Shown here: one piece after another, positions 1-616 of the stretch
Position numbering within the stretch: position 1 is the first letter of the stretch
How the letters are laid out: each line of letters opens with the position of its first letter
Origin: Escherichia coli
Lineage (GTDB): Bacteria > Pseudomonadota > Gammaproteobacteria > Enterobacterales > Enterobacteriaceae
Length of the DNA stretch: 616 nt
Assembly (NCBI RefSeq): GCF_003334255.1
Contig: NZ_QOWU01000209.1
Reading direction: 5' to 3' (one strand)
Notes under the pieces: generated by a model
Databases searched by the model: none
Told to the model about the DNA's origin: nothing
The model's input: only the letters and a program-made list of their open reading frames with translations
Position numbers and translations under genes: made by a program

Positions 1-616
1 CCTGAATCAGACGGCCCAATTCATCATATTCCCGGCGCAATTCCAGCCCGTCAGGCCCGGTGGCTGACGTTAACTGGCTGTGGTGGTTATAGTAAAACGC
101 CGATGCCCTGCCATCCGGCGTGGTGATGCGCGTGATGAGGCCCGTCACCACATCCGGACTGTATTCTGTTGTCCTGCCTGCGGCATCCGTCTGTGCCCTG
201 AGCCTGCCCACCGCGTCAAACTGACTCTGCGTGACGCTGCCGTCCGCGTGTTCCTTTTTCACCACCCGCTTCAGCCCGCCTTCACCCTGCGTGTGCAGGA
301 CTTCACGGCGGTTCAGGCTGTCGGTGATGGTGATGCGGTCCTTCTCATACTGATACGTGTAACTTAAGCCTGCCGGGTTTAGCTGTTCTGTCACCCGCCC
401 GTCGCTGTCGTAACGGTAACAGATTTCCGGTCGGCCCGTGTGACGGTGCGCCACCATCCGGCCCCGGTATTTATCATCGTAAGTAAAGCTGCGCACCTGT
501 GTATTGCTGCGGTCATACACCGCCGCCAGTTCGCCGCGGGGCGTCCAGCCATAGCGCACCAGCGGCGCGGCAGGTAAATTCTCCGGGTATTCCGGGTCGT
601 GCGTCAGCCACACGGC
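1..616 (-). CDS. Rhs family YD-repeat core protein, internal fragment (both ends outside window; first complete codon is 616..614, last is 4..2)
   Basis: Seen in sequence: the reverse-complement frame starting at 616 is open for all 205 codons. The translation contains YD-repeat motifs typical of Rhs cores (VYDRSNTQVRSFTYDD, YRYDSDGRVTEQLNPAGLSYTY, FDAVGRLRAQTDAAGRTTEY, YDELGRLIQ) and xDG turn motifs (HADGS, TPDGR, GPDGL). GC is about 61% and third-position GC about 72%. From memory, not a search: the peptide closely resembles the N-terminal part of E. coli Rhs core proteins, but I cannot assign a paralog (rhsA to rhsE) and so give no gene symbol. Confidence 0.93.

Follow-up and report, generated by a model that had tools for sequence, protein, structure and literature searches.

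The DNA analysed here, a window of 616 bases from Escherichia coli, is occupied almost entirely by one coding fragment on its minus strand. Read from base 616, this strand runs through 205 codons with zero stops, compared with 5-11 stops in each of the other five frames, and the coding piece takes up 615 nt of the window. Megablast aligned all 616 bases at 99.7% nucleotide identity with rhsC of E. coli G4/9, which encodes a protein of 1,397 amino acids, and 204 of the 205 residues are the same as in that protein, the sole difference being a single codon (Leu versus Ile). The window covers residues 293-497 of G4/9 RhsC and spans just 205 of about 1,400 codons, and nothing in it contradicts its identification as part of an rhs core.

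Related sequences are abundant in the species. Megablast matches were recovered in 3,885 of the 5,426 complete E. coli genomes, at a median of 3 places per genome and nearly always on the chromosome, and the best of them (99.7%) are annotated as rhsC or 'RHS element core protein'. An exact copy of the window was absent from these complete genomes (best match 99.7%, megablast), and a 55-mer taken from the end of the window that carries the variant codon had 0 exact matches among GTDB species-representative genomes. Matches in the plasmid collection were all below 97.3% identity; several of them come from records of 0.28-4.8 Mb that resemble chromosome sequence deposited under a plasmid label, and the others from records of 5-15 kb, so that evidence for a plasmid origin of the window was absent.

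At the protein level, the NCBIfam model NF041261 (RHS_core) matched the translated window with E=1.5e-120 and 403.9 bits, aligning collinearly with positions 301-505 of the 1,261 in the profile. Note that the whole-protein cut-off of this model, 2000 bits, is beyond the reach of any 205-residue fragment; full-length G4/9 RhsC scores 2678 bits. The wider family is very large, with 142,232 clusters (at 50% identity) matching residues 90-1260 of RhsC at E<=0.001. The GC content of the window is 60.9%, rising to 72% at the third codon position of the rhs frame. The E. coli genome has about 51% GC, and the window is richer in GC than this genome, as RHS core DNA should be; its value, well above that of the chromosome, fits the long-noted GC-rich and apparently foreign origin of rhs cores.

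Nothing else on either strand of the window was unusual. Rfam searches returned zero RNA families on either strand. An open reading frame of 95 amino acids with a GTG start lies on the plus strand (80..367), antisense to the rhs frame. This frame and other short ones are probably by-products of GC-rich coding DNA and were treated as spurious, because in this DNA of 61% GC they either lie on the opposite strand to the strongly supported rhs frame or are read in another phase.

The translated fragment opens with a lead-in of 21 residues, a strand followed by a loop, and then continues through nine back-to-back units of 21-23 residues, of which the ninth is clipped by the edge of the window (Table 1). 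The Pfam model RHS_repeat (PF05593) gave four significant matches (E=8e-8, 5e-6, 1.8e-5 and 4.5e-5) and two further weak, non-significant ones (E=0.094 and 4.4), and the model coordinates of all six fit a single continuous 21-residue register that places the YD position at window residues 24, 46, 69, 90, 112, 133, 155, 176 and 197. The YD repeat model TIGR01643 scored 56 bits (cut-off 15.8), its best stretch covering residues 117-152, and the strict motif [YF]DxxGR[LVI] occurred 3 times compared with 0.002 expected when this protein sequence was shuffled 20,000 times. The same nine-unit register is kept in aligned homologues down to 33% identity, in an alignment of RhsC 90-1260 with 39 homologues (33-78% identity) from which the 31 of 40 rows that span the window were used. 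Tandem units of about 21 residues of the YDxxGRL(I/T) type, scoring over the profile thresholds, thus place the window in the Rhs/YD repeat family. The register was set by the Pfam model coordinates together with the homologue alignment and the predicted strands. These replaced a repeat HMM built from the strong motifs of RhsC itself, which proved over-fitted and was rejected, as it recovered the strong units and left the degenerate ones near zero.

Table 1. Coding features of the 616-base window, and the four peptides quoted in a preliminary description of it. Residues are numbered within the translated fragment.
Feature	Sequence	Window position	Strand	Residues	Description
Open reading frame, interior of rhs core gene		2..616	minus		205 codons, both ends beyond the window; corresponds to G4/9 RhsC residues 293-497
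Lead-in	AVWLTHDPEYPENLPAAPLVR	554..616	minus	1-21	beta-strand, then 13-residue loop into the first unit; without YD signature
YD unit 1	YGWTPRGELAAVYDRSNTQVRS	488..553	minus	22-43	W24-T25 at YD position; D35-R-S-N is the second turn
YD unit 2	FTYDDKYRGRMVAHRHTGRPEIC	419..487	minus	44-66	Y46-D47 is an in-register YD, then a longer turn
YD unit 3	YRYDSDGRVTEQLNPAGLSYT	356..418	minus	67-87	canonical YxYDxxGRV
YD unit 4	YQYEKDRITITDSLNRREVLHT	290..355	minus	88-109	degenerate; Y90-E91 at YD position
YD unit 5	QGEGGLKRVVKKEHADGSVTQ	227..289	minus	110-130	degenerate; conserved ADGS second turn
YD unit 6	SQFDAVGRLRAQTDAAGRTTEY	161..226	minus	131-152	both turns canonical (FDxxGRL, DxxGR)
YD unit 7	SPDVVTGLITRITTPDGRASA	98..160	minus	153-173	degenerate
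YD unit 8	FYYNHHSQLTSATGPDGLELR	35..97	minus	174-194	Y176-N177 at YD position; holds the variant codon (Leu193)
YD unit 9	REYDELGRLIQ	2..34	minus	195-205	canonical YDxxGRLI, clipped by window edge
First quoted peptide	VYDRSNTQVRSFTYDD	473..520	minus	33-48	
Second quoted peptide	YRYDSDGRVTEQLNPAGLSYTY	353..418	minus	67-88	
Third quoted peptide	FDAVGRLRAQTDAAGRTTEY	161..220	minus	133-152	
Fourth quoted peptide	YDELGRLIQ	2..28	minus	197-205	clipped by window edge

The units differ in how well they match the repeat models, and the homologues reveal which positions are shared. The lead-in has the consensus aV.L..DP..p......pLVR in homologues, and its strand and loop were assigned by DSSP on the structural model described below. 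Unit 1 (homologue consensus Y.Y...GeL.aV.dR.g..vR) has only the weak Pfam match at residues 26-59 (model positions 3-33, E=0.094), with strands predicted around it at residues 20-24, 30-34 and 40-46; around unit 2 (F.y.....grMvaHr..GrP) they are predicted at residues 40-46, 54-59 and 65-69. A significant RHS_repeat match at residues 69-100 (E=5e-6) begins in unit 3 (Y.Yd..grV.eQ.n..GL.Y), where the turn falls on D70-R74, and its second half covers unit 4 (F.Y..d.t.VTDSLgR.e.y.F). Unit 5 (eGegGL.Rlv.h.rADGS) again shows a weak match, at residues 117-139 (model positions 6-28). The best match of all (residues 133-171, E=8e-8) marks unit 6 (..yD..GRL.a.tDaLGR.t), with turns on D134-R138 and D144-R148. 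Unit 7 (..D...G...g.t.pdG) is recognised at residues 158-190 (model positions 4-36, E=1.8e-5) and unit 8 (...d..g.l.....p.G..t) at residues 176-204 (model positions 1-29, E=4.5e-5), while unit 9 (..yD..GRl) occupies model positions 22-29 of this last match.

A longer spacing is also visible along the fragment. Within window positions 2-418 (residues 67-205), strong YDxxGR motifs recur 64 residues apart, at residues 69, 133 and 197, that is, in every third unit, and the autocorrelation of glycine, aspartate and aromatic residues peaks at a lag of 64. A three-unit super-repeat of 64 residues was considered and rejected, as unit-against-unit alignment scores carried no consistent similarity at distance 3.

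The preliminary description had named four YD-type peptides on the minus strand and read them as Rhs/YD repeats of a beta-shell. All four are present in the translation at exactly the coordinates it quoted. The second, third and fourth lie in the Rhs register, where they represent units 3, 6 and 9, the best preserved of the series. The first does not, since it begins midway through unit 1 and extends as far as the YD of unit 2, so that it is not one repeat unit: its 'VYD' (residues 33-35) aligns with the V.dR.g of unit 1 and so supplies the aspartate of the second, DxxG-type turn, and its only in-register YD, within 'TYDD' (residues 45-48), belongs to unit 2. The motifs it recognised are real, but the count was incomplete, as nine contiguous units fill residues 22-205 and five of them had gone unlisted. 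Its statement that the repetition lacks a nucleotide-level counterpart also holds: Tandem Repeats Finder returned one chance-level row of 19 nt, and a repeat finder returned short two-copy families only. The two checks that it proposed came out in its favour. The profile HMM scan found RHS/YD repeats (Pfam PF05593, TIGR01643) along with the enterobacterial RHS_core model, and the structure predicted for the nearest relative available at full length is a beta-shell that superposes on solved Rhs cocoons. The reading is consequently supported and the observation confirmed; a call made by eye, from the letters, was sound.

The structure modelled was that of G4/9 RhsC residues 90-1260, which is one conservative residue away from the window in the segment concerned, using AlphaFold2 and the 40-sequence alignment. 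The model reached a mean pLDDT of 86.3 and a pTM of 0.78, and ten-residue blocks over the window (model residues 204-408) had pLDDT values of 82-96. DSSP assigned two strands to each unit in the window and located the DxxGR motifs in turns. First turns of the units were found at T25-PRG-E, D70-SDG-R, D134-AVG-R and D198-ELG-R, and second turns at D35-RSN, N80-PAG, D125-GS, D144-AAG, P167-DG and P188-DG. The arrangement expected of YD repeats in a shell, antiparallel strands with DxxGR in the turn, is thus present in the prediction, and a high-confidence prediction assigns about 18 wall strands in the N-terminal third of the shell to the window segment. In Tse5 the hairpin turn consists of DXXGR, with the tyrosine pointing into the cavity (PMC10684867), and the cocoon of RhsA is an anticlockwise spiral of 76 antiparallel strands (PMC8765631). 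The strand and turn layout predicted for the window agrees with the published descriptions of both proteins.

Comparison of the RhsC model with the PDB by Foldseek placed Tse5 of Pseudomonas aeruginosa (8cp6) first (E=7e-88, TM 0.78, 31% identity), followed by RhsA (7q97) and the Advenella VgrG-Rhs core at TM 0.74, and then by other T6SS Rhs cores, teneurins and TcB-TcC. Tse5 is the best solved relative and is also found by the window alone at sequence level (E=4.6e-31). The two share the YDxxGRL hairpin architecture; however, Tse5 belongs to another organism, is about 31% identical to the RhsC model, and has a demonstrated role in T6SS and a pore-forming C-terminal toxin, whereas the window is known from core sequence alone. 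The window sequence further matches RhsP (8h8a), the S. bongori Rhs core (8qjd/b/c), Tse15 (8uxt), Rhs-Tre23 (7pq5) and RhsA (7q97). The same closed spiral beta-cocoon of YD repeats is formed by P. protegens RhsA (7q97), Photorhabdus Rhs-Tre23 (7pq5), Acinetobacter Tse15 (8uxt) and RhsP (8h8a), and by the Salmonella bongori and Advenella Rhs cores (8qjb-d, 8qja). These solved T6SS cocoons other than Tse5 superpose on the model at TM 0.53-0.74 and match the window sequence at E=1e-13 to 1e-19, but they are 19-24% identical and carry other N-terminal delivery domains and other toxins. The Tc toxin TcB-TcC (4o9x, 4igl) and the metazoan teneurins (6fb3 and others) have the YD-repeat shell fold too, at a greater distance from the RhsC model (11-15% identity, TM 0.35-0.55), and teneurin-like proteins match the window weakly by sequence (E about 1e-6). 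Two proteins share the formation of the shell in Tc toxins, and in teneurins the toxin-like domain sits outside it (PMC8765631). The closest likeness of all is to the core lineage of E. coli RhsA/B/C described by NF041261, with which the window shares its position in the core (293-497), its richness in GC and its occurrence in multiple copies per genome.

Taken together, the window is almost certainly an internal 615-nt piece of an E. coli-type rhs core gene, essentially rhsC, that encodes nine YD repeats of the shell wall. Other readings were weighed against this assignment. That units 1, 2, 4, 5, 7 and 8 look weak or degenerate by eye, and that two Pfam matches are non-significant (E=0.094 and 4.4), might invite the view that YD-like motifs arose by chance in a GC-rich open frame that belongs to no repeat family. 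The probability of this is close to nil: the strict motif far exceeds its shuffled expectation (3 versus 0.002), HMM E-values extend to 1e-120, the DNA is nearly identical to annotated rhsC and the register persists in homologues down to 33% identity, so that HMM scans, rhsC near-identity and shuffle test jointly refute it. It is also highly improbable that the fragment derives from another class of YD-repeat protein, such as a Tc toxin C subunit, a WapA-like wall protein or a teneurin-like protein. These classes have YD repeats and the fold of the shell in common, and all appear among the fold matches. Nevertheless, Tc and teneurin structures reach TM 0.35-0.55 at 11-15% identity compared with 0.78 and 31% for Tse5, and the 99.7% DNA identity to E. 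coli rhsC, together with the collinear match to the equivalog-type model NF041261 (E=1.5e-120), effectively refutes such an origin.

A decayed or truncated rhs copy is a more tangible alternative, one in which the repeats would be real and the shell would not be made. Truncated rhs genes do occur in E. coli, and the ends of the gene lie where the window cannot show them. According to its annotation, the rhs copy that adjoins glyS in strain D2 (L002 3450-8724) has lost its N-terminus behind an IS150 insertion, and orphan C-terminal rhs fragments come after rhsC in G4/9 itself. A pseudogene origin is nonetheless unlikely, given zero stops or frameshifts in 205 codons and a sequence one conservative residue away from an intact RhsC of 1,397 amino acids; furthermore, the orphan fragments of G4/9 represent the C-terminal part of the core only (about 1.5 kb) and not residues 293-497.

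If the window is part of an intact rhsC-like gene, its function can be proposed by analogy with solved Rhs effectors. Each repeat is predicted to contribute two antiparallel strands, YDxxGR(L/V) making one tight turn and D/NxxG the next, and the units of the window to form part of the anticlockwise-spiralling beta-sheet that is the wall of the Rhs cocoon. The complete shell would enclose a variable C-terminal toxin domain, which the aspartyl autoprotease that terminates the core, at PxxxxDPxGL, would cut off inside the shell, and an N-terminal plug would close the other end. Such a shell may both shield the producer and chaperone the toxin during export, and the assembly would be exported, as is typical of its homologues, on a T6SS VgrG spike (PMC8765631, PMC10684867, review PMC4436062). 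By this analogy the window would be a wall segment of a cage around a C-terminal toxin. Our analysis bears directly on the sequence identity of the window, its repeat register, the fold predicted for it and the agreement of that fold with solved cocoons; encapsulation, autocleavage and delivery would depend, in the gene of the window, on elements that all lie outside it, as do the toxin tip, the immunity gene and the N-terminal delivery domain.

The full-length relative supplies a view of these elements. G4/9 RhsC has the Rhs-associated core domain (Rhs_assc_core, TIGR03696) at residues 1170-1247, with PxxxxDPxGL at 1238-1247, and the plug domain DUF6531 (PF20148) at its N-terminus (E=2.8e-18). 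Cleavage leaves the shell fragment of Tse5 beginning at its Pro48, and the very start of this fragment aligns with residues 48-99 (PVNPLLGAKVLPGE...) of RhsC, in the N-terminal plug; this suggests that an N-terminal autocleavage site may be conserved in E. coli RhsC (residues 1-100, L001 7125-7424). For a PAAR assignment of the N-terminus, comparisons with the Pfam PAAR_motif (E=0.13 over 19 residues) and with PAAR-type proteins of the PDB (E=0.012-0.18) were weak and not significant. The G4/9 annotation contains no vgrG up to 8 kb from rhsC. Given the weak PAAR match and the lack of vgrG within this distance, delivery by T6SS is not established for this E. coli RhsC. The 150-residue C-terminal tip of G4/9 RhsC had zero Pfam matches. 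In G4/9 the tip of rhsC is followed by ybfB; tips are polymorphic, so this need not hold for the gene of the window. Downstream of rhsC in the same strain (L001 11318-15632), the main rhsC-ybfB pair is followed by two orphan rhs C-terminal fragments, the first accompanied by a second, identical copy of ybfB and the second by ybfC, with remnants of ISAs1 transposases beyond. The arrangement is typical of orphan toxin/immunity arrays at rhs loci, here with one module duplicated.

The single difference from G4/9 rhsC deserves separate consideration. Coding-strand bases 1-576 of the window are identical to that gene, and the variant codon (window 38-40, minus strand, residue 193) reads TTG (Leu) in place of ATA (Ile), with 2 of 3 bases changed. 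The variant codon and 82 nt around it are found exactly in five E. coli genomes, in another rhs copy that adjoins glyS/yibA. Moreover, the last 157 nt of the coding strand (from base 460 onward; window 1-157) are identical to this glyS/yibA copy in D2 and four other genomes, and over the whole window the copy is only 97.6% identical. The D2 gene adjoining glyS is itself an inactivated core in which the counterpart of the window sequence survives. Gene conversion between rhs paralogues may have made the window a small mosaic, a suggestion to which we give somewhat less than an even chance. The pattern cannot be proven from a window of 616 bases but is consistent with a short tract exchanged between rhs cores; otherwise the variant codon would have arisen independently, by changes at two of its three bases.

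Rhs cores of E. coli and their YD repeats have been described since about 1990, the original work on rhs reportedly coming from the Hill laboratory, and several Rhs beta-cocoon structures have since been solved. It was on the E. coli Rhs core that YDxxGRL(I/T) repeats were first defined (review PMC4436062). The window is a member of this long-known family and represents biology that is already known. Its identification matters little beyond correct annotation, to which it adds the full repeat register of this segment of the core. If the mosaic interpretation is true, the window would in addition directly capture the exchange between paralogues that lies behind the name rhs, 'rearrangement hot spot'.
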